IMG/VR virus record: IMGVR_UViG_3300035698_016797
Span: 32,001 to 96,000 of that record
Strand: one strand, 5' to 3'
DNA from: a virus
DNA length: 64,000 nucleotides
Each line of letters begins with the position of its first letter. The stretch's first letter is position 1. Below, piece after piece: positions 3,203-42,377 of the stretch. Under the pieces are notes generated by a model that was not told the DNA's origin, did not search any database, and saw only the letters and a program-made list of their open reading frames with translations. The translations under genes and the position numbers were made by a program.

Positions 3203-3597
3203 ATTTCTTTCCGATAGGATTTCAACCAGAGGGAGAAGATCCATTACATCCTGACGACTATCATTTCCACACGATTAATAGGATGTTCGCATACGCTTTT
3301 TCTTGTCAACTTTGTAGACACTTCCAACCGGTCCCGGAAGATGCACTCTTTATCACGAAAGCTACATTTTACAGTATGCCCGTACTTGAGGCATGTCTCG
3401 TATGTACGGACATCGAAAACGAGGAAACAATGCAATGGGCTTACATAGTTGAGACCATTTTACCAACAACTTGGGATGAAGAGGCAAAGATATGGATACA
3501 AAACGAAGCGGAACAACATGACATTGTCTTCAATTTTAATCATACTAACTCCAATGGGTGTGCTAACGATAGTGTGCATCGCATTGGTTTTAATTGA
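3199..3597 (+). CDS. hypothetical protein
   Basis: 132 aa, CxxC motifs, ATGA overlap with upstream gene. Confidence 0.55.
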   Translation: MNFFPIGFQPEGEDPLHPDDYHFHTINRMFAYAFSCQLCRHFQPVPEDALFITKATFYSMPVLEACLVCTDIENEETMQWAYIVETILPTTWDEEAKIWIQNEAEQHDIVFNFNHTNSNGCANDSVHRIGFN

Positions 3598-3601
3598 CAA
3601 A

Positions 3602-5194
3602 ATGGTTGAAAGCATAGAAGAAGAAGGAAATAGATGGTTGAACCATGACATCTATTTGGTCCAATTTGCAGAACTAAAGAGAGGATGTATTTCAATGTCA
3701 GATGGCAAGCAGAACTACAGAGAAACAGACACGCTATTACGCTTTAATGGTGACAAAGACAATTCTGTAAAGACAAAGTTGTGTCGCGTAGCCTTAAGGC
3801 CGGTTAAAAGTTGGAGATCAACCAATCAGGACAAGGACTGTTGGTATTCCATCTTTGCGTGTATTCAAGATGGAAAACAAAAGTGGTTGTTAAAAAGGCA
3901 ATCCATCCATCAAGACACTATAAAATCGTCTGTGAGCGAAACTATCATTCCACACGCGAACGGAATGAACATTCTCAAAAGCCAAAATGAATCAAAAGTC
4001 ACCACCTTCAGACAAGAAGGTTTCAGTGGTTCAAACATTATGGCTGGCTTTTTCAACAACACTCTTACTATGGGGCAGAGTTCGAAGAGAATATTCGACA
4101 TCCTCACCGAATCGTTGGCTACCGAAGCTGATGACTCACCTCTTGTCAACACCCCGGAATATGACCCTGAAGACGATCTTACTACAAGGTATCGCTGCAA
4201 GGGAACAACCACCGGCAGAACAAATGGATTTATGTTGCGCCAAATAGACAGTGAACTCGAATGTATCTATTGCAACACCATGAGATGTGATGTCTTGTTT
4301 GTTACTTCCACAGATAGAGAAGTACCGTGTCATGGAGACTGTCTTGAGGCGGAAGTAGAGATGAATCCAGATGTCGGGATTGCTCTGGTAATACATGAAA
4401 CAGTGTTCGGAGGCATTCCAGAAGGCAGGCTTCCTGCTGGAGTAAATGTGCTTGAAACACCACTATCTAACTCCTCTGTTCCAGAAGACGACAAGTGTTG
4501 TTTCTGTGACAAGAAAAAGTGCACCGCTGACGGATATGTAAAAGGTAAACTAACATCCTTTCACAGACTCTGTGCCCTCAAACAGCTCACCCTTACACCT
4601 TGGGATGCTGAACTTGAATCTTTGATAGGTGACACCGTACTTATTCCAAGTGGAAGAGTTCCTCAAAGTATGGTTCCACACAAGGCTGTATGTTTTATGT
4701 GTGGAGTTTCTGGGGCAGACAGGGTCGCAACAGACTTCGTTAATGGCCAACCACGATTTCTGCATATCAAATGCCTAGAGGATGAGATCAACAAGGATGG
4801 GATGACAGAGGATGACCTCCTTGATCTTGCCACAGAACTTATGAAAGACAGACAGATAGAAGAGTGCTGGTATTGTGGAAACAAAGAAGGCAAACTTATC
4901 TGGTCAGAGGAATATTGTGTATGGGTTCACAAAGAATGCGTTATCAGAGACGTAATGGAAGACTCTGCCGACGCAATCAACCTCAACATTGCCGCAGAAC
5001 TTCTCACCCAAGAAGAATTGAACATCCCGCAAATAATACAAGAAACTGGTAAATGTAAAGAGCTGAACGGTTGTGTCAAGATGGCTCACATTTTCCTGAG
5101 AAGGGTAAATGATATGCTCGAAGGAGAAGAGAATGTCTTCGAACCTGCTCCCAACTGGATTACGAAGTTGGAAGAGGCATTAGACAATGAATGA
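3602..5194 (+). CDS. large protein with repeated CxxC...HxxC zinc-binding modules
   Basis: CFC..FHRLC, CFMC..LHIKC, CWYC..VHKEC; start uncertain (3602, or 3695 which has an AGAGGA RBS). Confidence 0.65.
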   Translation: MVESIEEEGNRWLNHDIYLVQFAELKRGCISMSDGKQNYRETDTLLRFNGDKDNSVKTKLCRVALRPVKSWRSTNQDKDCWYSIFACIQDGKQKWLLKRQSIHQDTIKSSVSETIIPHANGMNILKSQNESKVTTFRQEGFSGSNIMAGFFNNTLTMGQSSKRIFDILTESLATEADDSPLVNTPEYDPEDDLTTRYRCKGTTTGRTNGFMLRQIDSELECIYCNTMRCDVLFVTSTDREVPCHGDCLEAEVEMNPDVGIALVIHETVFGGIPEGRLPAGVNVLETPLSNSSVPEDDKCCFCDKKKCTADGYVKGKLTSFHRLCALKQLTLTPWDAELESLIGDTVLIPSGRVPQSMVPHKAVCFMCGVSGADRVATDFVNGQPRFLHIKCLEDEINKDGMTEDDLLDLATELMKDRQIEECWYCGNKEGKLIWSEEYCVWVHKECVIRDVMEDSADAINLNIAAELLTQEELNIPQIIQETGKCKELNGCVKMAHIFLRRVNDMLEGEENVFEPAPNWITKLEEALDNE

Positions 5195-6478: not shown

Positions 6479-6678
6479 GCAGAAGAAACGCCCTCTTGGG
6501 GTTGGAGCAATGAACTCCACACTTTTCACTCAAGTGAAGGGTAAGTGCGAGATAGCTGCCGCAGGCAGCTGTAAAGCTTCAAGTCTTGCCAACTGTCTGT
6601 CATGCAGTGTTGGAAAAAGCGTTCTCAACATCAAGCCTGAGTAAACACAGAATTCACAGTCGAAGGAGAAAGGACATC

Positions 6679-7206
6679 ATGATTAACGTACTGAAAGATG
6701 GAGCAGAAAGTACCATTGCAGGTGGTACTCTTCAGGATCTCATCAAGATCTTGAGCATCGGAGATGACTGGCAAATCAAGGTTGGAGGGATGGTTATTCC
6801 AAGCAACTCCGAAATCGAATTTTCAGATGGACACGAAGTCGTCTTCTCTTCGCCAGCATATCTACGCCTCTCTGAGAGCGACGAGAGTGTGGACGATACC
6901 GCTGAGGGTTCCAACGCAACGTCACCGGCAATGGAAGCGGTTGCCGCAGCGGGAATTCTCACAGCCGATACGGAAGCAGCACTTGCCGAACAGTTGGCAT
7001 CGACACCTTCAATTCGCATCATAGTCAGGAGTAAATCAATTGTCCTGCTTAATGATGGAAAGCCAACCCTGCATGACAAACTGCCAACTCCGTCGAAACT
7101 CAAGACGGCGCTTCACGTCATGGATGTTTTCCCTCTGTTGGGAACCTCCATTATTGTATGGAAGAAGAAAATAGAAGATGAGAATTCAGAAACACCTACC
7201 CCGTGA
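6679..7206 (+). CDS. protein with N-terminal ThiS/MoaD-like beta-grasp (Ubl) domain
   Basis: TLQDLIKIL.I..W.IKVGG..IP....FSDGHEVVF matches ThiS/MoaD pattern; strong RBS before ATG 6679. Confidence 0.55.
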   Translation: MINVLKDGAESTIAGGTLQDLIKILSIGDDWQIKVGGMVIPSNSEIEFSDGHEVVFSSPAYLRLSESDESVDDTAEGSNATSPAMEAVAAAGILTADTEAALAEQLASTPSIRIIVRSKSIVLLNDGKPTLHDKLPTPSKLKTALHVMDVFPLLGTSIIVWKKKIEDENSETPTP

Positions 7207-7784: not shown

Positions 7785-8417
7785 ATGTCACAGAACGTAG
7801 CAGTATCATTCGGCGTCAACAAGATGAACCTGGAAATCGCAGGCCAGAGCCTCGCCACCGTCGCGCATCAGCTGAAGAGCCTCTTGGGGCTTGCCGGTGG
7901 CGAAACCCAGAAAGTCAATGGTCGCGAAGCTGCCAATGACTACATCCTCAAGGCTGGCGACAGGCTTGAGTTTGTGAAGGTCAGTGGTCGCAAGGGTGCA
8001 AACGTCTCCGTGACGTTCGGCGTCAACAAGATGAACCTGGAAATCTCAGGCCAGAGTCTGGCAACGGTTGCTCACCAGCTCAAGTCCCTCCTGGGACTTG
8101 CCGGTGGTGAGACCCAGAAGGTCAATGGTCGTACAGTGGCCAATGACTACATCCTCAAGGCTGGTGACAGGCTTGAGTTTGTGAAGGTCAGTGGTCGCAA
8201 GGGTTCGATCGCCGTCAGTGCCGGTGTGAACCGTATGGACCTGGAGCTGGCTGGTAAGACTGTCAGCCAGGTTCGTAAAGAGCTGGCAAGCCTGCTCCAC
8301 ATCGACAATACGTGGAAAGCGGAAGTCAATGGTGCCACCTGTGGTGCCACCAAACGCCTCCGCAACGGTGACAGTCTGGAATTCATCAAGGATTCCGGCA
8401 CCAAGGGTGATGGCTGA
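7785..8417 (+). CDS. tandem triple ubiquitin-like (beta-grasp) protein, poly-Ubl precursor
   Basis: three ~69 aa units ending SGRKG, SGRKG, SGTKG(+DG); KVNG and L..GD.LEF.K Ubl signature; GGAGG RBS. Confidence 0.9.
   Translation: MSQNVAVSFGVNKMNLEIAGQSLATVAHQLKSLLGLAGGETQKVNGREAANDYILKAGDRLEFVKVSGRKGANVSVTFGVNKMNLEISGQSLATVAHQLKSLLGLAGGETQKVNGRTVANDYILKAGDRLEFVKVSGRKGSIAVSAGVNRMDLELAGKTVSQVRKELASLLHIDNTWKAEVNGATCGATKRLRNGDSLEFIKDSGTKGDG
7807..8204 (+). repeat. 207-bp-period direct repeat (Ubl units 1 and 2)
   Basis: near-identical DNA, e.g. ttcggcgtcaacaagatgaacctggaaatc and gacaggcttgagtttgtgaaggtcagtggtcgcaagggt occur twice. Confidence 0.9.
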
Positions 8418-8447
8418 AACCATCAAATGCTATTGATGTAGCATTAG

Positions 8448-8481
8448 AGTCGGAGGGGGAATGTTCCCCTTCCGACTTTTT
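8448..8481 (+). terminator. Rho-independent terminator after the Ubl gene
   Basis: agtcgga..ggggaa-tg-ttcccc..tccgact followed by T-run. Confidence 0.75.
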
Positions 8482-8519
8482 CTTTCCAAACTGCACTAAA
8501 ACATGGAGGAATAACCAAC

Positions 8520-9251
8520 ATGGCGGCTCCAACCACAGTTCGAACCTACATTCGTATGGAAGGTGAGAGCACTGAACTAGTAGAGGAACGAGTCAAAAAG
8601 AGCTTTGAGACTGAATCTTTTCTTGAAGCACTGAGGCTCGAAGCTGGACTATCGTCCGGTCTCATTCCTCAAGATTGCATCTTCTTCTTCCGTAAACCAC
8701 CAACATCGGCAGAATCCGGTGATGATGCAGTTTACGTGATGGAAAAAGAACCTCGTACGGTCACTATGCACTTTCGCAATTCCGGTGCCAGCGGTAGCGG
8801 AACCGTTCATCCACTCAAAGTGTCTCTTCCGTACTGTCTTTTCTTCATACCCGTTAGAGGTGGAAACATACAGGACATTTGGCCAGTATGTTCAAAGCAG
8901 CGCATCAAAACCATAGATGATCCCATCTTTGTGTTGCCGATACCAAACGTGTACGATTCGGGCCATGGAAGAATTTGTGTTGGAAATCTTCGCATCGACA
9001 ATGAGAGTCCCATCCATGTGAGACTTAACAAGTTGGTGTCGATGGTTTTCACGTCTGAGTTCAACTTGGATTTGACCACGATCTATCCTTCTGTGATGGT
9101 GAAGAAGTCTGGTGAAGATCCATCCATTTTTGGATGGGCACACAAGTCGGAAGGCAATTCGTTGTTTGGATGCTCCGATGAGGTAGAGTACCTGCCTCAT
9201 AATTACGGAACATTCAAAGGTCTAATGGGGAATATAGGATGTCAACTGTAA
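8520..9251 (+). CDS. prokaryotic E2-like conjugating protein (E2 family D / PRTRC protein B-like)
   Basis: SLPY.LF and LPIPNVYDSGHGRICVG motif with candidate catalytic Cys; sits between Ubl and JAB. Confidence 0.7.
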   Translation: MAAPTTVRTYIRMEGESTELVEERVKKSFETESFLEALRLEAGLSSGLIPQDCIFFFRKPPTSAESGDDAVYVMEKEPRTVTMHFRNSGASGSGTVHPLKVSLPYCLFFIPVRGGNIQDIWPVCSKQRIKTIDDPIFVLPIPNVYDSGHGRICVGNLRIDNESPIHVRLNKLVSMVFTSEFNLDLTTIYPSVMVKKSGEDPSIFGWAHKSEGNSLFGCSDEVEYLPHNYGTFKGLMGNIGCQL

Positions 9252-9595
9252 AGCAGTTTGACAGAATATTGAGTGCAACTGAAAACATTCCAACCGTCAA
9301 TGCTCAACCAATCAGTTCCGTGTTTGGGGTTTTGACAAAAAACAGTGTTCCTCGGTTGCTGACAATTACCGGAAATGCGACAACTATCATGTTGGCGCAG
9401 TTTTTACTGTTCTTGCGCAGACAGTTGAAGCATGTAAAATGTTTGATGGTCCTTGACAACAAAAACAAGGGTCAAGTAGATCGCGCATTCGTTAAGGCTG
9501 AAGTGATTCAGAGAGACAGAGATGCTGCAAAAGCCATTGCGGCCAAGAAAAAAACCAAGGGTAAGACGGTCAAAAAGACCAAGGAGTTGTTCTGA
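9239..9595 (+). CDS. hypothetical protein within the Ubl operon, Lys-rich tail
   Basis: 118 aa, overlaps E2 stop and JAB start. Confidence 0.6.
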   Translation: MSTVKQFDRILSATENIPTVNAQPISSVFGVLTKNSVPRLLTITGNATTIMLAQFLLFLRRQLKHVKCLMVLDNKNKGQVDRAFVKAEVIQRDRDAAKAIAAKKKTKGKTVKKTKELF

Positions 9596-10680
9596 TGAAC
9601 AGATTCGTGACGTCCCAAGGCATCCCAATCATTACAATGGAAGATGGAGATGATGTGGAGTCCATTACGGACCCCATCTGTTTCATCGTTTCATCCAAAG
9701 GTTGCTTCGTAAAGAAGACCAATCGGTTCTACACTTCCGTAACCGCAACAGGAAAAGACGGAATCAGCGTGCTTGGAGAAGTCAAGCCGTTCGTATCTTT
9801 CGCAGTAACAAAGCTGCCGCTTCCGACATTCCGTGCCATTCGCCAGTTCTTCACTGATGTCTACAAGAAGATGCAATCTGAAGTGGCCATCATGTTGTAC
9901 TACGATTTCGATGCGAAGTTGTGGTTGTGGGTGGTTCCTGAGCAGAAGGTAACTGCCGCCAGTGTTGACTATGAGGAGACCGACAAATCCATCATCATCA
10001 ACCAGGACAACGAACGTATTGAAGGTCCGGTTCCAGACAGCTTTACGAAGCTCGGAAGTATCCATTCTCATGCAGGAATGGGAGCCTTCCATTCTGGTAC
10101 TGACAACGCTGACGAATTCCACTTCGACGGCCTACACATCACCATCGGCTCGTTCAACAAGGCAAGCAGTGGAGATTGTTCGTACTCTGCACGCTGGATC
10201 ATCGCCGGAGAAGAAGTGAAGACTGAAATCACGGAAGTGGTTGCAGATCTCGATCCTCCTGGAGAATACCCCGAAGATGCTCATGAAGCAGTAAAGAAGG
10301 GTACATCTGCCAGTCGCACTTATGGATCAGGACGTTCCATTGGTGCCGGTACAGGAAAAGGAGGTGCGGGTCAATCGGGAATAACAAACCCTACCCAGGC
10401 GGCGAAAGGCCGCCAGACGACGCAGACGACTCAGAGTGGCAAGCCTGGTACGAAACCTGGGGAAGGTGCGACGGTGGATACAACTGGTAAAGCTCCAGCG
10501 ACTGGTAAAGCTCCAGCGACTGGTAAAGCTCCAGCGACTGGTAAAGCTCCGACAACTGGGAAAGGTCCAGTGAAGGGTTTGACGGCAGGTGACACTCAAG
10601 CAGTGACTCCTCTCGTTCCGGCGAAAGGTTCAGAAGAAAAACCGGGCCAGGAAAAAAAAACCAAGACAGAGTCATCGTAG
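9595..10680 (+). CDS. JAB/MPN+ metallo-isopeptidase (PRTRC protein A-like) with low-complexity tail
   Basis: GSIHSHAGMGAFHSGTDNADE = HxH-x7-S-x2-D JAMM motif. Confidence 0.85.
   Translation: MNRFVTSQGIPIITMEDGDDVESITDPICFIVSSKGCFVKKTNRFYTSVTATGKDGISVLGEVKPFVSFAVTKLPLPTFRAIRQFFTDVYKKMQSEVAIMLYYDFDAKLWLWVVPEQKVTAASVDYEETDKSIIINQDNERIEGPVPDSFTKLGSIHSHAGMGAFHSGTDNADEFHFDGLHITIGSFNKASSGDCSYSARWIIAGEEVKTEITEVVADLDPPGEYPEDAHEAVKKGTSASRTYGSGRSIGAGTGKGGAGQSGITNPTQAAKGRQTTQTTQSGKPGTKPGEGATVDTTGKAPATGKAPATGKAPATGKAPTTGKGPVKGLTAGDTQAVTPLVPAKGSEEKPGQEKKTKTESS
10483..10572 (+). repeat. 18-bp tandem repeat x5 encoding TGKAPA
   Basis: actggtaaagctccagcg x3 exact plus two degenerate copies. Confidence 0.9.
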
Positions 10681-10840
10681 AGAATCCGGCGAGTGCGGGA
10701 ATACAATTCCTGAAAACGACTCCAGATCAGAGCAGTTCATAGAAAGAATGGTCGAAAGGTTCGGCTCTGAAGTTGGAGACAATCTTCAAGAGGCTGTTGA
10801 GTTGGCACGAGCCAGCCAACAGTCAGAAGGATAGAACGAT

Positions 10841-11551
10841 ATGTACAAGAATGTCATAGTTATTGGCTGTGGAGGAATTGGATCACATCTTCTTCCTCCG
10901 CTGACACGATTCTTCGCTTCAATGGAGAAAGAGAAGCGTCCCAAGGAAATGAGAATCGTTGATGGAGACAAGTATGAGCAAGGCAATGCCGATCGGCAAG
11001 AGTTTGTTGCTCGTCAAGTCAACCAGAATAAAGCAGAGGCGCAGAAGGAACGCTGTTCAGTCATTCACGAAGGAATGATGGACTACTATGCGTTCCCGGA
11101 ATACCTCGGTAGCGGCAATATTGACAGCATTATTGAAGAGGATTCAATTATCTTCATGTGTGTTGACAATCATGTTTGTCGCAGTATTGTGTCGAAACAC
11201 TGTCAAACGTTGAACAACGTTGCTCTCATCACGGGAGCAAACGAACTCACCGACGGCAACGTACAGATTTACGTCAGAAAAGATGGAAAGGATATGTCTC
11301 CTCCAATAGAAAAGAGACATCCTGAAATCAGCACGGCGAAAGATGGTGACAGATCAATGATGAGCTGTGAGGAGATTGAGAAGTTGCCCGGTGGTGGACA
11401 AATCATTCTGGTGAATGCTACCGCCGCGAATCTTCAATTTCAACTCGCTTGGGAATGGCTCTCTATCGGAAAGCTTCCTTTCGAGGAGGTATATTTCGAC
11501 GTTGAGTCAATCGGAATGCGTGGGGTGCCAAATGACTACTCCAAAAAGTAG
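10841..11551 (+). CDS. ThiF/E1-like activating enzyme
   Basis: VIGCGGIGSHL, VDGDKYE..N..RQ, NKAE, CVDNHVCR, candidate catalytic Cys in MSCEE. Confidence 0.9.
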   Translation: MYKNVIVIGCGGIGSHLLPPLTRFFASMEKEKRPKEMRIVDGDKYEQGNADRQEFVARQVNQNKAEAQKERCSVIHEGMMDYYAFPEYLGSGNIDSIIEEDSIIFMCVDNHVCRSIVSKHCQTLNNVALITGANELTDGNVQIYVRKDGKDMSPPIEKRHPEISTAKDGDRSMMSCEEIEKLPGGGQIILVNATAANLQFQLAWEWLSIGKLPFEEVYFDVESIGMRGVPNDYSKK

Positions 11552-12341
11552 CACAGCTCCTCCGGTAAAAAAGTCGGAAGCAAAAGCCAAAACAACCGCC
11601 AAGAAGGACGAGAAAAAAGCCGTAGTAAAGAAGGCTGACAAAGCTTCTGCGGCACCTATTCTGATTCCTGAAGAAATGAGGATTAGGTGTTTGTTTGTTG
11701 ATGGACTGGCTCCAAATCACGTAATAGTTGCCTACGGAGACGACAATGCGTCTTTGCTGAGCACTGGAGTGTGTGTTCGTGATCCAGAAAACAATAAACG
11801 GTTTTATCATATCACACAAATGTTGGTTGGTTTCACCCCAGAAACGGCCGGTCCTTACTTTCAGCCGTTGACTGGTCAAATGTTGCTGGCATCATTGAAG
11901 CATCACAAGGCTAAACTGACATTTCCTTTGACTGTATTTAGAGTTGTTCATCTGTGGGAAGATGGGAACATCATTGGATGGTCAAAAAGAAGTCAAGAGA
12001 AAGCCTTGGAGCGCAGTACTTCGATGTATCTCTGTGCACAGTGTAAAATTTCTGTGACAAATGGAGTTTACGCTCCTGGATGCTCTCCGTATTCAGAGGT
12101 TATAGCTAAAGCTGTAACCATGGCAGAGAGTAAAGTTGCGTTTCACAATCTGTTGGCAACTCGTGTGATTGAAGGCAACCACGATTTATGGTCGTTCTTG
12201 TCGGCCAACGCCTACCTTGATAGTCTGTGTACAAGGTGTCGTCTCTTGGCAATAAAAAGCCTAACTGGAGAAATAGTTACTCAGATTGCGACAACAGGAA
12301 GAATGAAACCGGTGTTTCAAAACGAAAAGGAGGTTGAGTAA
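11532..12341 (+). CDS. hypothetical protein (Lys/Ala-rich N-terminus, two CxxC)
   Basis: likely start MTTPK at 11532 overlapping the E1 end. Confidence 0.6.
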   Translation: MTTPKSSTAPPVKKSEAKAKTTAKKDEKKAVVKKADKASAAPILIPEEMRIRCLFVDGLAPNHVIVAYGDDNASLLSTGVCVRDPENNKRFYHITQMLVGFTPETAGPYFQPLTGQMLLASLKHHKAKLTFPLTVFRVVHLWEDGNIIGWSKRSQEKALERSTSMYLCAQCKISVTNGVYAPGCSPYSEVIAKAVTMAESKVAFHNLLATRVIEGNHDLWSFLSANAYLDSLCTRCRLLAIKSLTGEIVTQIATTGRMKPVFQNEKEVE

Positions 12342-14971: not shown

Positions 14972-16249
14972 ATGCTGAATCAATTGTCACGACAGTTTGG
15001 AGAGCTGCCAGTAGAACTTGTTGCTAAAGATCAAAGCGACATTCCGATAGTGTCGTTTATTCAAGCTAGGCATGGGCCGGTATTGCCTGGTCGAAATATA
15101 AACGAGAAGGCATTTGGCCAACTACTTGAACTTCTGCTCGAAGGCAAGATTGTCAGAGTTAGATGTAATATAGATGCTTTTGCTCAAGAGATGGAGCATC
15201 TGAGAAAACTTGCATCTAAAAATGTTCTCATGGTATCTGCTACGGATATTTGGGAACATAATAGAGGTGAAGTTTACAAATTCAGGTTTAACGCATCAAG
15301 CGAATACTATATGGGACTTGATGAATTAGTAAATCCTGTTGATATAATTGCTTCTGTTCTTGGAGTGGAGGGAGAACTCCTTACAAGTCTTATGGCAGAT
15401 ATTTCGTCTCACTACAATCGCTTTCCATTGACAAAAAGGGATGGTTCGCAAAGATGGATTAACGCTCCAGACGATGATCTGAAAGGGGTTCAGAGACGCA
15501 TAATGAACAGAATGCTTTATCGTGGATGGGCAACTCCATGTGCTCACGGATTCATTCATGGAAAAAGTATTAAGACAAACGCAGAACGTCATGTTGGAGC
15601 CAAGGTTGTCGTCAAAATGGACATATCCAAATTCTTTGACAACATAGGAATTGACAAACTTAATACAGCCTTTGTTCCTCTGCTGAAAGCAGAAGAGCTT
15701 TTCACAATCAATTTTATCTCATCGTTGTGTACTCTCAACGGGGTCACCCCACAAGGAGCACCAACGAGTCCCGCACTATCAAATCTCGTGGTAAGAAACA
15801 TGGACTTTGCCCTCATGGGTTTAGCCAGAAAACATCACGCAGTCTACACGAGATATGCTGATGATTTGGTATTTTCCTCGAAAGATAATCGTGCATTACC
15901 ATCAATCATCCCTTTGGTAATGAACGTTGTCAACTCGAATGGGTTCCGAATCAACATGAGAAAAACCGGAGTCTTTCGCGACGGTGGAAGAATGCCGGTA
16001 ACCGGACTGGTAATCAATAAACATACAAACGTTCCTCGTAAGGAGCGTTATAAAGTACGTGCGGAGCTTCATAACATTGCAACTGGAAGAAAACCTGCAA
16101 GCGAAGAGGATCTTCAGCGTCTCGCCGGAAAGGTGGCGTTCATCAATATGGCGAATCCGCAACAGGGAGCACGTTTTGATAGTTTGATGACAGCAGCAAA
16201 GGCTGGTGCCGTACAATCAACGGAAGGTGCGGAAAACAATGACAGTTGA
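14972..16249 (+). CDS. retron-type reverse transcriptase with ~130 aa N-terminal extension
   Basis: KRDG..R.I..P, AHGF..GKSI..NAERH (region X), KMDISKFF, PQGAPTSP.LSN, YTRYADDLVFS, VTGL (region Y). Confidence 0.92.
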   Translation: MLNQLSRQFGELPVELVAKDQSDIPIVSFIQARHGPVLPGRNINEKAFGQLLELLLEGKIVRVRCNIDAFAQEMEHLRKLASKNVLMVSATDIWEHNRGEVYKFRFNASSEYYMGLDELVNPVDIIASVLGVEGELLTSLMADISSHYNRFPLTKRDGSQRWINAPDDDLKGVQRRIMNRMLYRGWATPCAHGFIHGKSIKTNAERHVGAKVVVKMDISKFFDNIGIDKLNTAFVPLLKAEELFTINFISSLCTLNGVTPQGAPTSPALSNLVVRNMDFALMGLARKHHAVYTRYADDLVFSSKDNRALPSIIPLVMNVVNSNGFRINMRKTGVFRDGGRMPVTGLVINKHTNVPRKERYKVRAELHNIATGRKPASEEDLQRLAGKVAFINMANPQQGARFDSLMTAAKAGAVQSTEGAENNDS

Positions 16250-23137: not shown

Positions 23138-23211
23138 GTACAGCGTTAGCTCATGATGGCGAGAGCGTCCTGTAATTGGGTATGGCGGAGGTTCGAGTCC
23201 TCTCCTGTACA
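23138..23211 (+). tRNA. tRNA-like pseudogene (intact D and T arms, shortened anticodon arm, no CCA)
   Basis: GTACAG/CTGTAC acceptor, TA-GCTC-loop-GAGC D arm, GGAGG-TTCGAGT-CCTCT T arm; only 20 nt between D and T stems. Confidence 0.6.
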
Positions 23212-38143: not shown

Positions 38144-40504
38144 CTATATTGTGCTCAACAGTTGCAGATCATTTACTATGAACGACGACCCGCGTCCTAT
38201 TGAACCGTACAGCAGGTAAACCTTACCGATCTCAATCTGTTCTTTCAACGTCGGGTATTTTGATGGAAATATTATTGCATCCATGTCTCTTTGATCTTTC
38301 GATATGGAAAGGAATGCCATTTCCTGACCTTGGGTCTTACCTTTCTTTACTATATGCTCTCTAAAGTCATTTACAATGCCCGCGAGACATAAATCTTCAC
38401 TTTTTCTATTGAACCCCAGACCATCAACTACATCTGCAATATCAGTAGTGGTCTCACTGCGAATGATTTTCTCGAACGGCGTCATAGGAGAGGCGGTAAG
38501 ATATGCATCCGTCATAGTCTTCTCGTCGTCAAGCATCTCTTCGAAAGTCTGATGCTCTTCACTCTCTATCTCATCCAGGTCACACTGTGTAACCTCTTCT
38601 CTCGTGAGTTCTTTACGTAGCTTTGTGCCTTCAGCCTTACGCTTCTGCTGTTTCTTCATCTTGTCTACGATGGGTCTGAGGTAATGATGCTTGGCAATCA
38701 ACACCTCTCTGTCACTGCCGAAGCAATCCAGGGCACCGGCACGAATCATTGAGTCAACAGCTTGACTGTTCAACGTGTTGAAGTCAGTTTCTATGAGGAA
38801 CTCAGCCATGTTGGTATACTTACCTCTGGCCTTGACAACTTCACGAGCCGCGTACGGACTGACGTTCTTAATGAATGCCAAACCGAACTCAATCTTCTCG
38901 CCATCACGAATCTCGAAGAACGCTTCACTCGTCATGATGGAAGGTCTTATCACATCAATCCCGAAGAACCTTGCCTCTTCCACATACATGCCGACCTTAG
39001 AAACCTGTGAACCACCATACTCTCCGTTGAGAAGTTCACACAGGAACTCGATTTTGTAATGAGCTTTCAGATAAGCGGCCTGGAAAGTGATCTTACCATA
39101 AGAAGCGGCATGACTTTTGTTAAAGCTGTACCTCTGTCCCTTCTCAATGTATCCAAACACCATCTCCGCATCTTCTCTTGTTCTTCCCTTACGTTCCATT
39201 GCACGCTCGATGAACGGTTCTTTGATCTCTGCCATCTTCGATGCAATCTTCTTACCGATAGCTTTCCTCAAGTTGTCCGCCTCTGCGAGTGTGAACCCTG
39301 CAAAGTCCTGAGCCGCTCTCATTGCCTGCTCCTGATACACCATGATGCCATAGGTTTCCTTAAGCGCACCCTCAAGAGACTCGTGCATATATTCGACCGG
39401 TTCATCACCTCTTCTTCTGGCAATGAAGGTCTGGGTGGTGCCTGCATCCATGGTTCCGGGACGAATGATTGCATTCATCACAACCACATCCATGAAGTCT
39501 TCCATGCCCATGGTCCTGCAAAAGTCCTGCACATACTTACGCTCAAGCTGAAAGATGCCTGTGGTATGTCCATCGGCAAACAGCTTTAGAGTGAGAGGAT
39601 CGTTGAGATTGATCTTCTCTATATCTATCTTGGGTTTACCATCGAAAGCAAGGTCTCTGTTGATCCTCTGCACTGCCTTATCAATTACAGTCAAGGTGTT
39701 CAAGCCGAGGAAATCCATCTTGAGGAACCCTGTGTCCTCAATGTCATACATGTCCCATTGGGTTATGTATACGTCTTCCTTCTTTGTTCCAGCTTTGAAG
39801 AACAGAGGCATGTATTCAACCACATCCTTTGGTGTAATCAGAACTCCAGCCGGATGTTTGCCCGGTTGACGAACCTTTCCAGAGAGGAAGCCTGCCATCT
39901 GAAAGAGTTCAGGATACAAGGCTTGCTGTTTCTGAAGGAATTCAGAGCCTTCCACCGCATCTTCAAGTGTCCTACAGGACGCAGGGATAGCCTTAGAGAT
40001 GGTGTCACCAACCTGAACGTAGTTGTCTATCTGTTGTGCCCTTGAGACGTCTCTGATGGACGCTTTCGGCCCCATGGAGCCAAATGTGATGATGTGTGCG
40101 ACTCTATCAGCACCGTAGCGGTCGCGAACGTATTCGATAACGCGTTTTCTTTGCTCTTTACAGAAATCCATATCTAAATCTGGCATAGATATACGCTCTG
40201 GATTGAGGAACCTCTCGAACAGTAGGCCGAAGTAGATTGGATCAAGTGTCGTAATGTCCAGTGCATAGCACAAAATACAGCCAGCACCACTACCACGACC
40301 AGGACCAACTGGGATACCTCTCTGCTTAGCCCACGAAATGATGTCTTCAACGATCAAAAAGTAATCACAGAAGTTCATCGACTCTACAACCCCAAGCTCA
40401 TATTCTTTACGCTTTAAGTACTCTTCTGTTGTAGGGATGCCCTTGGCAATCCATCCCTCTTCAACCCTGAATCTTAGATAGTCAAAATTTAGATTGTTAG
40501 ACAT
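38144..40504 (-). CDS. dnaE: DNA polymerase III alpha, catalytic (palm/fingers/OB) part of a split gene
   Basis: GPGRGSGAG, FERFLNPER.SMPDLDMDF, G.HPAG, K.DFLGL, FNKSHA.SY, GL..IK.V; GGAG RBS. Confidence 0.93.
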   Translation of the reverse strand: MSNNLNFDYLRFRVEEGWIAKGIPTTEEYLKRKEYELGVVESMNFCDYFLIVEDIISWAKQRGIPVGPGRGSGAGCILCYALDITTLDPIYFGLLFERFLNPERISMPDLDMDFCKEQRKRVIEYVRDRYGADRVAHIITFGSMGPKASIRDVSRAQQIDNYVQVGDTISKAIPASCRTLEDAVEGSEFLQKQQALYPELFQMAGFLSGKVRQPGKHPAGVLITPKDVVEYMPLFFKAGTKKEDVYITQWDMYDIEDTGFLKMDFLGLNTLTVIDKAVQRINRDLAFDGKPKIDIEKINLNDPLTLKLFADGHTTGIFQLERKYVQDFCRTMGMEDFMDVVVMNAIIRPGTMDAGTTQTFIARRRGDEPVEYMHESLEGALKETYGIMVYQEQAMRAAQDFAGFTLAEADNLRKAIGKKIASKMAEIKEPFIERAMERKGRTREDAEMVFGYIEKGQRYSFNKSHAASYGKITFQAAYLKAHYKIEFLCELLNGEYGGSQVSKVGMYVEEARFFGIDVIRPSIMTSEAFFEIRDGEKIEFGLAFIKNVSPYAAREVVKARGKYTNMAEFLIETDFNTLNSQAVDSMIRAGALDCFGSDREVLIAKHHYLRPIVDKMKKQQKRKAEGTKLRKELTREEVTQCDLDEIESEEHQTFEEMLDDEKTMTDAYLTASPMTPFEKIIRSETTTDIADVVDGLGFNRKSEDLCLAGIVNDFREHIVKKGKTQGQEMAFLSISKDQRDMDAIIFPSKYPTLKEQIEIGKVYLLYGSIGRGSSFIVNDLQLLSTI

Positions 40505-40724
40505 TGCCAACTCCACATATAGAAAATTCTCTAGTTAATCTGTAACACACCTCTATCATCAGTGCTTTATTCTGAGACGGAACATCATCCCACGGCACAG
40601 AAGATTCGTCTCTTGTTGAATAACCAAACGATGGGGCAAGAGACTCGTACAAATAGTGAAAGCGTTCAGCCAAATATTCCGGGTAAACGTTTCCAGCCTT
40701 ATTTTTGAATCTTTTTTTGGTCAT
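40497..40724 (-). CDS. small hypothetical protein between the two dnaE halves
   Basis: 75 aa, overlaps both neighbours. Confidence 0.55.
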   Translation of the reverse strand: MTKKRFKNKAGNVYPEYLAERFHYLYESLAPSFGYSTRDESSVPWDDVPSQNKALMIEVCYRLTREFSICGVGNV

Positions 40725-42351
40725 TTTTCCACCCTATAAATTTGTCATAGTCAGAGGATTGTGTTATGTCAAAACTGGGAAACTTGTACCCTTGAAAGTC
40801 GAGTGCAAAGTCAACCCTATCTGTTATCTCTAATGTAGCGTCTGCCATTTCAGCGGTCAAGCTACCTGTTATCATTTGACCTCTATTCTTAAAGAAGAAG
40901 TCACTTGATGAGAACTCAAGCCCACCACTGTTGCCAGTAGCAACCTTCAGCAAAGTGTTTTGAATAGCGTGGTCTTCTTGCTTTAAGTAGTGACAGTCAT
41001 TAGTCATCACACTCTTAACGCCTTCGTCTTCTGCCATGTTAAGTATCTCTGGGACTAAGTCGTCGTACAAGGGCCAATCAATATGCATTACTTCGTTGTA
41101 AAACCTGTCTCCAAACATTCCTTTCAACATCTGCATGTTAGCTCTGGCCTTATCAATATCACGAGCTTCTTCTGAAAAGTGATATGAAACTGGACTTTTG
41201 TAGCAACCAGACAGTACAATCACACCTTCAGAATGATCCGCAAGCATCTTCTTGTCAATCCTGGGACGATAGTAGAACCCATCTCTCCCGGCAATAGAAC
41301 AGAGCTTCACCAAATTCTGCCAACCCTTCTCTGTCTGAGCAAGCAATACAAGGTGGTAATTACCACGGTTCTCCCGACTTGATGCGTCATCAACGTAGTA
41401 AGCCTCGAACCCATGTATTGGCTTCACTCCTACATCCTTACATGCCTGCTGTTGTTTATAGCATCCAAACATATATCCGTGGTCAGTCAACGCAAATGCT
41501 GGCTGTCCTATGTCGTGAACGTGTTGAGCAATAGCCTCTGGTGACGGAACCCCGTCAAGAAACGAGTATTGTGAGTGAACATGAAGATGAACAAACTCTC
41601 CGTTATCTTCTGGCTTTTCAGGACTATCCTCTTCTATCCACACATGTTTTACCTCGCCCCCATCATCTACGACCTTAAAAGCTTCTGGGTCTGGTCTGGA
41701 AAGTTCTTGTGCCACTACCTTGGCGGCTTCTACTAGCGAAACCTCAGCCTGTTTGTCTTCTTCTTCGAGCTTTTTAGAAAACTCATCAAATGAAACGTGA
41801 TCATAGTCTTCTATTACAATCGGTCGCGTTGCAACATCGTCTTCGAACATTGAGGATGGAACGTATACTGTTTCTGTATCTGTGGATTTATTAAATTCAT
41901 AAACGAGTTCCGTTTTTTTGATTAACTCAACAAAGTTATTAGGAAGATGTGTTGAATGCTTACTCTGAGAATACTTAGCTCCCAACGTGCGAGCCACAGT
42001 TCTTCCGAACTGTTCGGCAGAAACCAATTGTATTACAGAGTTCTTGGGATTAAAAAACACAAACGTCTTCGGCATTAAACCTTCTACGGCAATCCGATCG
42101 GCCAAATAAAAAAAGTATCCCTTCTTACCACCCCTCTTAAGTACAACGGGAATCCTTCTGTGTTCATCCTCGTCTCCAAGATTATAATCTACGATAACCT
42201 CAAAGTGAATACTTTTACCAACCGAAATAAGTCTGTTACCTATCAATCCCATACGGCCAGTAGGTTTGAACGATCCAATATCTGAACCGAAAACGAGGGG
42301 AAGAGTGTGTGACACATACGCATCAATTGTATTTAGATTGAGATCTGCCAT
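40699..42351 (-). CDS. dnaE: DNA polymerase III alpha PHP part with ~240 aa unknown N-terminal extension
   Basis: FVHLHVHSQYSFLDG, ALTDHG, HLVLLA, YYRPRID, TNDCHY; AAGGAG RBS. Confidence 0.88.
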   Translation of the reverse strand: MADLNLNTIDAYVSHTLPLVFGSDIGSFKPTGRMGLIGNRLISVGKSIHFEVIVDYNLGDEDEHRRIPVVLKRGGKKGYFFYLADRIAVEGLMPKTFVFFNPKNSVIQLVSAEQFGRTVARTLGAKYSQSKHSTHLPNNFVELIKKTELVYEFNKSTDTETVYVPSSMFEDDVATRPIVIEDYDHVSFDEFSKKLEEEDKQAEVSLVEAAKVVAQELSRPDPEAFKVVDDGGEVKHVWIEEDSPEKPEDNGEFVHLHVHSQYSFLDGVPSPEAIAQHVHDIGQPAFALTDHGYMFGCYKQQQACKDVGVKPIHGFEAYYVDDASSRENRGNYHLVLLAQTEKGWQNLVKLCSIAGRDGFYYRPRIDKKMLADHSEGVIVLSGCYKSPVSYHFSEEARDIDKARANMQMLKGMFGDRFYNEVMHIDWPLYDDLVPEILNMAEDEGVKSVMTNDCHYLKQEDHAIQNTLLKVATGNSGGLEFSSSDFFFKNRGQMITGSLTAEMADATLEITDRVDFALDFQGYKFPSFDITQSSDYDKFIGWKNDQKKIQK

Positions 42352-42377
42352 GCTTAGTACTCCTTTTGTATGCAAGT

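Follow-up and report, generated by a model that had tools for sequence, protein, structure and literature searches.

A candidate ubiquitin-like conjugation cassette with a three-unit modifier gene, encoded by a 181-kb phage and related to 6d/PRTRC-type systems

To our knowledge, bacterial conjugation of ubiquitin-like proteins (Ubls) has so far been shown by experiment only as a host defence (CBASS Cap2 and Bil) or as a stress pathway (Bub). Here, we describe a cassette of this general kind in a virus. It occupies positions 7785–11551 of a 64-kb stretch of DNA, which we term ‘the window’, and which comprises bases 32001–96000 of the 181,030-bp IMG/VR virus record IMGVR_UViG_3300035698_016797. 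In Bil operons, the genes occur in the same order as in the window, and the passage of the Ubl from an activating enzyme (E1) through a conjugating enzyme (E2) to lysine has been demonstrated experimentally (PMC11601603, PMC10557695). In the Ubls of Type II Bil systems, the residues beyond a conserved Gly form a tail that varies, and a JAB enzyme pre-processes these proteins (Chambers et al., PMC10557695). The three-domain ‘Ubl3’ proteins of Type II Bil and of Bub form Ca2+-dependent filaments (PMC11601603). A further kind of system, ‘operon type 6d’, was predicted by Iyer, Burroughs and Aravind in 2006; its E2s possess an absolutely conserved His downstream of the Cys, and its JAB proteins carry a ‘JAB-N’ domain in which Arg and Trp residues are strictly conserved (PMC1779556). 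The PRTRC families (TIGR03734–03742) appear to correspond to this operon type.

The cassette in the window comprises five co-oriented genes, each preceded by a good Shine–Dalgarno sequence. We consider it to be a working, phage-encoded Ubl protein-conjugation system that forms, within the 6d/PRTRC type, a viral branch of its own, and put the probability of this at roughly 70%. Its features are as follows.

7785–8417, plus strand: poly-Ubl precursor, 210 amino acids (aa); match to ThiS (PF02597) at E = 8e-10, 39.6 bits against a cut-off of 22.5
7785–7997, 7998–8204 and 8205–8408, plus strand: ThiS-like beta-grasp Ubl units 1, 2 and 3, arranged head-to-tail
8446–8488, plus strand: terminator-like hairpin found by pattern scan; a 15-bp stem (8446–8479) with a 4-nucleotide (nt) loop, then TTTTTCTTT
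8520–9251, plus strand: E2-like Ubl-conjugating enzyme, 243 aa; match to Prok-E2_D (PF14460) at 24.8 bits, E = 2e-5
9239–9595, plus strand: small fifth gene product, 118 aa; predicted to be all-helical with a basic C-terminal helix
9595–10680, plus strand: JAB/JAMM metallopeptidase, 361 aa; matches to PRTRC_A at 1.5e-6 and Prok-JAB at 1.6e-3
10681–10840, plus strand: structured JAB–E1 intergenic region (fold z = -3.5), with a hairpin just before the ribosome-binding site of the E1 gene
10841–11551, plus strand: ThiF-type E1, 236 aa; match to ThiF (PF00899) at 3.9e-18, 65.9 bits against a cut-off of 28.1, and to PRTRC_ThiF at 3e-19

The original prediction for this region was of four genes, Ubl–E2–JAB–E1, in one overlapping operon, with catalytic motifs in three of the products. 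All four genes are present on the plus strand where they had been placed, and the motifs, the Cys of GRICVG in the E2, the JAMM motif of the JAB protein and the Cys of MSCEE in the E1, are real. Overlooked were the triple repeat within the Ubl gene and the fifth gene at 9239–9595. ‘Overlapping’ holds for the E2 and small genes (by 13 nt) and for the small and JAB genes (by 1 nt), but not for Ubl and E2, which are 102 nt apart, or for JAB and E1, which are separated by 160 nt; this last interval (10681–10840) contains no T-run terminator. The operon had also been taken to belong to a phage, an assignment that would fail if the contig were a piece of host chromosome or an integrative and conjugative element (ICE). 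With 181,030 bp, direct terminal repeats and a CheckV completeness of 100%, the record is a complete virus genome.

Residues on which catalysis depends in other E1s, E2s and JAMM enzymes can be followed through the relatives of the cassette, which were collected from genomic contexts, from IMG/VR as scanned with an alignment of E1s (68 loci) and from our own survey with hidden Markov models (HMMs). The E1 has the Gly-rich nucleotide loop (G9–G14), the Arg finger (Arg52), the Mg-binding Asp (Asp109) and, within MSCEE, the catalytic Cys176, and none of these is lost in any of 50 viral loci. Its matches among profiles of PDB structures are MoeB, ThiF, UBA5 and SAE2, and it is without a rhodanese domain. 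The motif of the JAB protein is likewise complete (E96...H157-x-H159-x7-S167-xx-D170), and its JAMM residues are kept in 51–52 of 52 viral loci. Some 90 aa precede the catalytic Glu and form a domain that resembles JAB-N; the correspondence is tentative, and the strictly conserved Arg and Trp that typify the 6d version do not occur across the 52 loci, where position 110 is Y, F or W.

Beyond its catalytic domain, the JAB protein ends in a disordered tail rich in Lys, Thr, Gly and Pro, in which five 18-nt repeats (10483–10570, residues ~297–326) encode TGKAPA. The tail matches weakly, in Pfam, the Cementoin transglutaminase-substrate repeat, and the JAB tails of relatives are likewise long and variable. 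It could serve to bind nucleic acid, or as a Lys-rich acceptor.

In the E2, the catalytic Cys of GRICVG is Cys153; Asn143 precedes it, and the family motif F-N-x-D-L spans residues 181–185. In an alignment of 150 E2 relatives, Cys153 is kept in 147 and Asn143 in 149. The catalytic Cys residues of both the E2 and the E1, whose conservation the original prediction had left to be checked, are all but constant. The AlphaFold2 (AF2) model of the E2 has a predicted local distance difference test (pLDDT) score of 95.5. When it is compared with known structures by VIA-align, UBC, UEV or RWD folds fill almost all of the leading rows (Z 4.0–5.2, residues 44–228), among them UbcH10, UBE2D2, the Tsg101 UEV domain, and the bacterial BubB and CdnG-E2 proteins. 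The evidence for a UBC-like fold with a catalytic Cys and a preceding Asn is, in our view, modest but coherent.

E2s of this kind are numerous. Searched with a profile, a set of 1.84 billion representative proteins yielded 871 clusters at E <= 1e-3, 28 of them at E <= 1e-30; an earlier impression of rarity, from a word-index protein search that returned a single relative, was an artefact of the method. Among the best 133 relatives, 64 match Prok-E2_D at E <= 1e-3, the best of them at 1e-14, and PRTRC_B is matched weakly by 43 (best 7e-10). No other family is matched by any of these 133, which identifies them as an unmodelled branch of the Prok-E2_D family. Neither blastn with the region nor tblastn with the E2 found a match in 50,697 phage records, and PHROGs has no match for the Ubl, the E2, the small protein or the JAB protein.

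The small protein is a constant part of the cassette: a gene of ~105–125 aa occurs between E2 and JAB in all loci of the window's architecture (type A, below). These proteins have a weak motif, G-N-A-x-x-I-L-x-A-Q-F, and the AF2 model of the one in the window is helical (pLDDT 74; predicted template modelling score, pTM, 0.41). It matches no family in Pfam, NCBIfam, PHROGs or PADLOC, and a search of a protein atlas returned noise only, namely matches to leucine-rich-repeat-like features and a model at pLDDT 0.46.

The viral relatives are of two architectures. ‘Type A’ is that of the window: one to three Ubl units, an E2 of ~240 aa, the small protein, JAB and E1. It is found in ~11 distinct elements, several of them on contigs of 178–192 kb, and its five-gene order is conserved down to 20–30% identity between E2s. 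‘Type B’, the commoner, occurs in ~40 IMG/VR contigs of 23–459 kb (L019–L065; e.g. L019:2095-7138). In these, the E2 forms the N-terminal domain of a protein of 800–1220 aa, and is followed by JAB, E1 and a Ubl protein; the ~600-aa extension of the E2 has no match in Pfam. The Ubl protein (106–211 aa) carries a single, C-terminal, Ubl unit that ends in G-x-K-G, and in 19 of 38 cases an N-terminal Rho_N/SAP-like nucleic-acid-binding motif. A second ThiF-like gene is often present 1–2 kb downstream. The E1, JAB, E2 domain and Ubl unit of type B are homologous to those of the window, with the same catalytic residues and G-x-K-G end, but type B lacks the small helical protein, and has no terminator between the Ubl and enzyme genes. 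In the E1 tree, type A forms one group (support 89/96) and type B another (91/30). The two are sisters, and together are split (94/89) from the canonical PRTRC E1 of Ralstonia phage Dina and from clostridial plasmid versions, with deeper placement unsure on account of long branches.

The cassette is not unique, then, nor is this the first sighting of one: carriage by a phage is already annotated in GenBank, in Dina, a cultured phage of 39 kb with a PRTRC block E-C-F-B-A-ThiF (gp02–gp07) at its left end. On the Clostridioides difficile plasmid pHSJD-312 (145 kb), a gene annotated as ‘prokaryotic E2 D family protein’ stands two genes away from ThiF. Related ThiF genes, at 28–30% identity, are carried by this plasmid (L088; NZ_MG973074.1:18603-21001) and by the Butyrivibrio hungatei plasmid pNP144 (L087). 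Both are large, non-mobilizable plasmids of 120–145 kb, from Clostridia and Butyrivibrio; they may be phage-plasmids, and offer culturable points of entry. Another related contig, JALNXG010000002.1 (L001, identical to L012), is a 177,804-bp phage contig with a di-Ubl gene that was deposited as a scaffold of a Melioribacteraceae metagenome-assembled genome; either the phage was mis-binned or the assignment hints at its host. The survey of phage genomes that the original prediction called for thus gives ~50 IMG/VR contigs, and some cultured elements, with relatives of the operon. A full-text search of the literature returned bacterial systems only and no paper that describes or tests such phage systems, and reviews of jumbo phages do not mention a Ubl system of this kind.

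The three units of the Ubl gene repeat in the DNA with a period of 207 nt and an 88% match (Tandem Repeats Finder), and are joined by linkers of 0–2 residues. In the window, the units end in SGRKG, SGRKG and SGTKG, the last followed by a two-residue cap (DG) before the stop codon. Across nine loci, every unit closes with ...EF[VI][KR]x[STA]GxKG. The number of residues past the last Gly varies, from none (L001, L011), through one (L007, L017, L015) and two (the window), to four (L016), eight (L013) and 16 (L018), and these tails are non-conserved. A conserved Gly with a variable tail of 0–16 residues is the signature of a precursor that needs to be trimmed. The number of units varies too, from one to three among relatives; the poly-unit layout of the window recurs in L013, L001, L007, L016 and L015. 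L016 also has an extra, stand-alone, single-Ubl open reading frame (ORF; L016:5823-6029), placed upstream of the di-Ubl gene at a distance of ~100 nt; this is a further way to raise tag dosage. By similarity, the units of the window follow the pattern A-A-B, and those of its nearest relative, L013, the pattern A-B-B, which indicates independent duplications in which a different unit was copied in each lineage. Between units 1 and 2 of the window, we count 20 synonymous changes and 8 that are non-synonymous. The synonymous divergence (dS) is 0.58 and the ratio of non-synonymous to synonymous divergence (dN/dS) 0.09, and so both copies have been kept functional for a long time.

Whether the precursor is cut between its units can be argued both ways. 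Since the internal units each retain the full terminal motif, cleavage by JAB into monomers is favoured. The other course is that the three-unit protein is a single, three-domain modifier that is conjugated whole through its last Gly, as are the Ubl3 proteins of Bil and Bub. Proteins with three beta-grasp domains make up 21% of Type II Bil Ubls and 53% of Bub Ubls, and act as units, uncleaved (PMC11601603), so that cleavage between units in the window is not certain, and this counts against our reading of the gene. Every internal unit in the window, however, holds a complete EFVKxSGxKG motif. Units have, moreover, been gained independently in sister phages, some relatives manage with one, and the linkers are only 0–2 residues long. 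We regard the single-modifier course as unlikely rather than implausible; the judgement concerns this one step, and is not to be added to those made below on rival accounts of the whole system.

Downstream of the Ubl gene lies the second feature that bears on the supply of tag. The terminator noted there in the original prediction is a 15-bp hairpin with a T-run at 8446–8488, and the Ubl–E2 intergenic region folds with z = -6.0. In 10 of the 11 type A loci, the 160 nt that follow the Ubl stop codon contain a hairpin with a folding energy of -18.7 kcal/mol or lower and, after it, a T-run; the hairpin sequences are unrelated to one another. By the same measure, such structures occur in 2.4% of 660 windows drawn at random from these loci, a contrast weakened by the make-up of those windows, which are mostly coding, and by the relatedness of the 11 loci to each other. 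These results support a conserved attenuator that would place the tag transcript above that of the enzymes. Together, the terminator and the tandem units point to a high demand for the tag, and the suggestion that the Ubl is made in excess has gained on both counts.

From these parts, we can sketch how the cassette might operate. We infer strongly, from homology and from the experiments on Bil and Bub, that its chemistry would be that of conjugation. Transcription would begin upstream of the Ubl gene, and most transcripts would stop at the 8446–8488 hairpin, leaving an excess of tag. The JAB/JAMM enzyme would cut the 210-aa precursor after each G-x-K-G, to release three monomers of ~70 aa and remove the DG cap. 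The ThiF-type E1 would then adenylate the exposed C-terminal Gly and take up the Ubl as a thioester on Cys176, from which it would move to Cys153 of the E2, and finally to lysines of target proteins. JAB may also take the Ubl off its targets again. The small helical protein would be a conserved accessory, perhaps an adaptor, although a role as adaptor or regulator is a guess. In proteomic experiments, the K-G terminus would leave a single Gly as remnant on Lys after trypsin.

Several observations weigh against this account. The match of the E2 to Prok-E2_D, at 24.8 bits, lies just below the gathering cut-off of 25; the structural Z scores, at 4–5, are modest, and a Foldseek search of the E2 model against the PDB gave no match below E = 0.1. 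The conserved His of the 6d E2s, mapped by alignment, appears to be replaced by Asp in this branch: position 184, within [FW]-N-x-D-L, is Asp in 138 of 150 relatives and His in six, and Dina PRTRC_B has F-T-H-P-N-H there. The literature searched contains no experiment on this family or on canonical PRTRC, and the evidence points to no particular target, E3 or stage of expression.

The surroundings of the cassette bear on what it might be for, and include the following.

3449–5194: 581-aa Cys-rich protein with repeated C-x2-C...H-x2-C motifs and a weak, PHD-like zinc-finger match (3.6e-5), under cut-off
11532–12341, plus strand: candidate sixth gene, translationally coupled, which overlaps the 3' end of the E1 gene
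14972–16249: retron-type reverse transcriptase (RT), PADLOC RT_XIII 1.7e-78, with NAxxH, QGxxxSP, YADD and VTG motifs

The product of the candidate sixth gene has a disordered, Lys/Ala-rich N-terminus of ~45 aa and a globular part with two CxxC motifs; a positional counterpart in L013 has the same layout, and the two sequences are weakly similar (E = 5e-5). The protein is a candidate substrate or adaptor, its membership in the system being unproven. Treble-clef fingers serve as E3s in other Ubl systems, and that the Cys-rich protein at 3449–5194 might be an E3 is speculation; CxxC-rich genes that resemble it also occur upstream of the cassette in relatives (e.g. L007). A beta-grasp domain at the start of the ORF at 6586–7206 was considered and dropped, there being no support for it from Pfam or from the Ubl-unit HMM. 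The retron-type RT lies 3.4 kb downstream of the cassette in a synteny common to L013, L001 and L007 and missing in L018; a functional link between the two is unproven, the synteny being confined to the window's own phage lineage.

More generally, the neighbours of the cassette are accessory and nucleic-acid genes (retron-type RT, RNA ligase, RuvB-like ATPase) rather than structural genes, and in L013 they include a Lar-like restriction-alleviation gene. The minus-strand half of the window holds the phage replication module: a split DnaE-type polymerase, DnaB helicase, primase, UvsX-like recombinase and exonuclease. The polymerase (phrog_405) occurs as two adjoining ORFs, 38144–40516 and 40699–42375 on the minus strand, that span the C-terminal and N-terminal parts of the profile, respectively. 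Cultured phages have polymerases no more than 37% identical to that of the carrier, which is without a close cultured relative. There are no lysogeny genes in the 64-kb window. ARAGORN finds a tRNA-Ile with an unusual anticodon, AAT, at 23138–23211.

To what would the tag be attached? We consider the chances about even that it is placed on host proteins, or on proteins of rival mobile elements, during takeover of the cell, because related cassettes occur on phages, plasmids and ICEs, among which no virion is shared, and because the setting is one of accessory genes. The tethering of the Ubl to a nucleic-acid-binding motif in type B may be cited alongside. The fuller proposal, of a phage Ubl pathway that acts on host proteins (defence, nucleoid or other) for takeover or counter-defence, with a polyubiquitin-style precursor and a built-in attenuator, is more tentative, and falls somewhat short of an even chance. 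The jamming of host Ubl defences, raised in the original prediction, is a conceivable use that none of our results favours in particular. The accessory setting speaks at the same time against modification of the phage's own proteins, by which virion or replication proteins would be regulated or cross-linked and Lys-rich tails would be built-in acceptors. The Lys-rich disordered segments in the JAB tail and in the 11532–12341 product, and the similar layout in L013, would suit that role, as would the precedent of lambda-like phages that pair Ubl-like and JAB domains in tail assembly (PMC1779556). The lambda pair (TAPI/TAPK), however, comes without E1 or E2, related cassettes reside on elements that make no virion (plasmids and ICEs), and that of the window sits in an accessory/replication-side block, away from structural genes. 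We find self-modification improbable, and slightly more so than a defensive role.

In that defensive role, the cassette would protect the infected cell from competing phages (superinfection exclusion) through Bil-like tagging of an invader's tail protein. Bil tags the central tail fibre of phages, which spoils assembly, and has the order Ubl–E2–JAB–E1; defence systems are common cargo of phages and other mobile elements; and the cassette lies near a retron-type RT, in synteny with three relatives. The synteny, though, may be no more than the inherited genome order of one phage lineage. PADLOC gives no Bil-type or ISG15-like match, only weak matches of Cap2-type E1–E2 models to the E1 (the library's Bil models are unconfirmed), and the nearest families are PRTRC and Prok-E2_D, not Bil. 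A lytic phage, furthermore, gains less by protecting its host. On balance, we think defence a distinctly improbable purpose. Far less probable than either is a sulfur-carrier pathway of the ThiS–ThiF, MoaD–MoeB or TtuB type, for thiolation of a cofactor, tRNA or DNA. The Ubl units do match ThiS and MoaD models, and the E1 matches ThiF and MoeB, but an E2 with near-invariant Cys and Asn is always present, the rhodanese domain is missing from the E1, and no gene for a sulfurtransferase, or for thiazole, molybdopterin or thiouridylase functions, is nearby. Tandem, capped units suit a tag that is consumed, not a carrier that is recycled.

What we have is a complete cassette with intact catalytic residues, in a lytic-looking phage of 181 kb, and of a type predicted in 2006. 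With at least about 50 viral contigs, two architectures and 871 E2 clusters, it represents a sizeable and unexplored part of phage biology. The tandem tag gene and the conserved terminator lead to testable predictions on processing and dosage, both with parallels in eukaryotic ubiquitin genes. Should the targets prove to be host proteins, the cassette would embody a new class of takeover or counter-defence mechanism, in which a virus parallels the ubiquitin biology of eukaryotes and mirrors, in reverse, the Bil defence of bacteria, and would furnish a compact, orthogonal kit for tagging proteins.

Among known systems, PRTRC, as found in Dina, and operon type 6d share most with the cassette of the window. 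Like them, it encodes JAB and E1 separately, includes a conserved-Cys E2 of the Prok-E2_D kind, and is carried by a mobile element; it keeps, too, the relative order C(Ubl)...B(E2)-A(JAB)-ThiF. The PRTRC_C beta-grasp protein of Dina ends in VGRKG, then a tail, and the units of the window share the G-R-K-G end. Of the traits of 6d, it shows separate JAB and E1, a small Ubl with a C-terminal Gly, an E2 with a conserved Cys, and a protein that is predicted to be alpha-helical. The resemblance to PRTRC that was originally proposed holds in that the best NCBIfam matches of the E1, JAB and E2 are PRTRC_ThiF, PRTRC_A and PRTRC_B. It does not extend to membership of the curated families, all three matches being far under cut-off (69.3 bits against 144.75, 28 against 101.8, and 12.2 against 131.45, respectively). 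PRTRC_C (TIGR03738) does not match the Ubl of the window at E <= 0.1. The complete 181-kb genome has no match to PRTRC_E or PRTRC_F (the PRTRC_F search was validated on Dina, at 352.8 bits), and none to ParB_N (PF02195), for which the control was positive in 11 of 14 genomes. Unlike PRTRC, the window has a tandemly repeated Ubl and an E1 in a separate viral clade; unlike the E2s of 6d, its E2 has Asp at the presumed position of the conserved His.

Bil (BilABCD, types I and II; Hor et al.; Chambers et al., PMC10557695; Gong et al., PMC11601603) resembles the cassette in its Ubl–E2–JAB–E1 order, in the conserved Gly and short variable tail of its Ubl, which JAB trims in Bil, and in that some Bil Ubls have two or three beta-grasp domains. 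Bil differs in being bacterial and acting against phages, whereas the cassette of the window is encoded by one. The multi-domain Ubls of Bil are single modifiers, whereas the units in the window each carry a terminal motif, and the fifth, small, gene has no equivalent in Bil.

In eukaryotes, polyubiquitin genes (UBB, UBC and yeast UBI4) consist of head-to-tail units without spacers, with a terminal Gly and a cap that is removed; the number of copies differs between relatives, and the units are under strong purifying selection. The Ubl gene of the window is like these in layout only, with head-to-tail units that each have their own conjugation terminus, and with a C-terminal cap. Its units end in K-G, not in the G-G of ubiquitin, and are ThiS/PRTRC_C-like; and the putative cleavage, unlike that of polyubiquitin, would be by a JAMM enzyme of the same operon. 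The cassette is, in sum, a distinct viral, ParB-less, poly-Ubl branch of the 6d/PRTRC-type systems.

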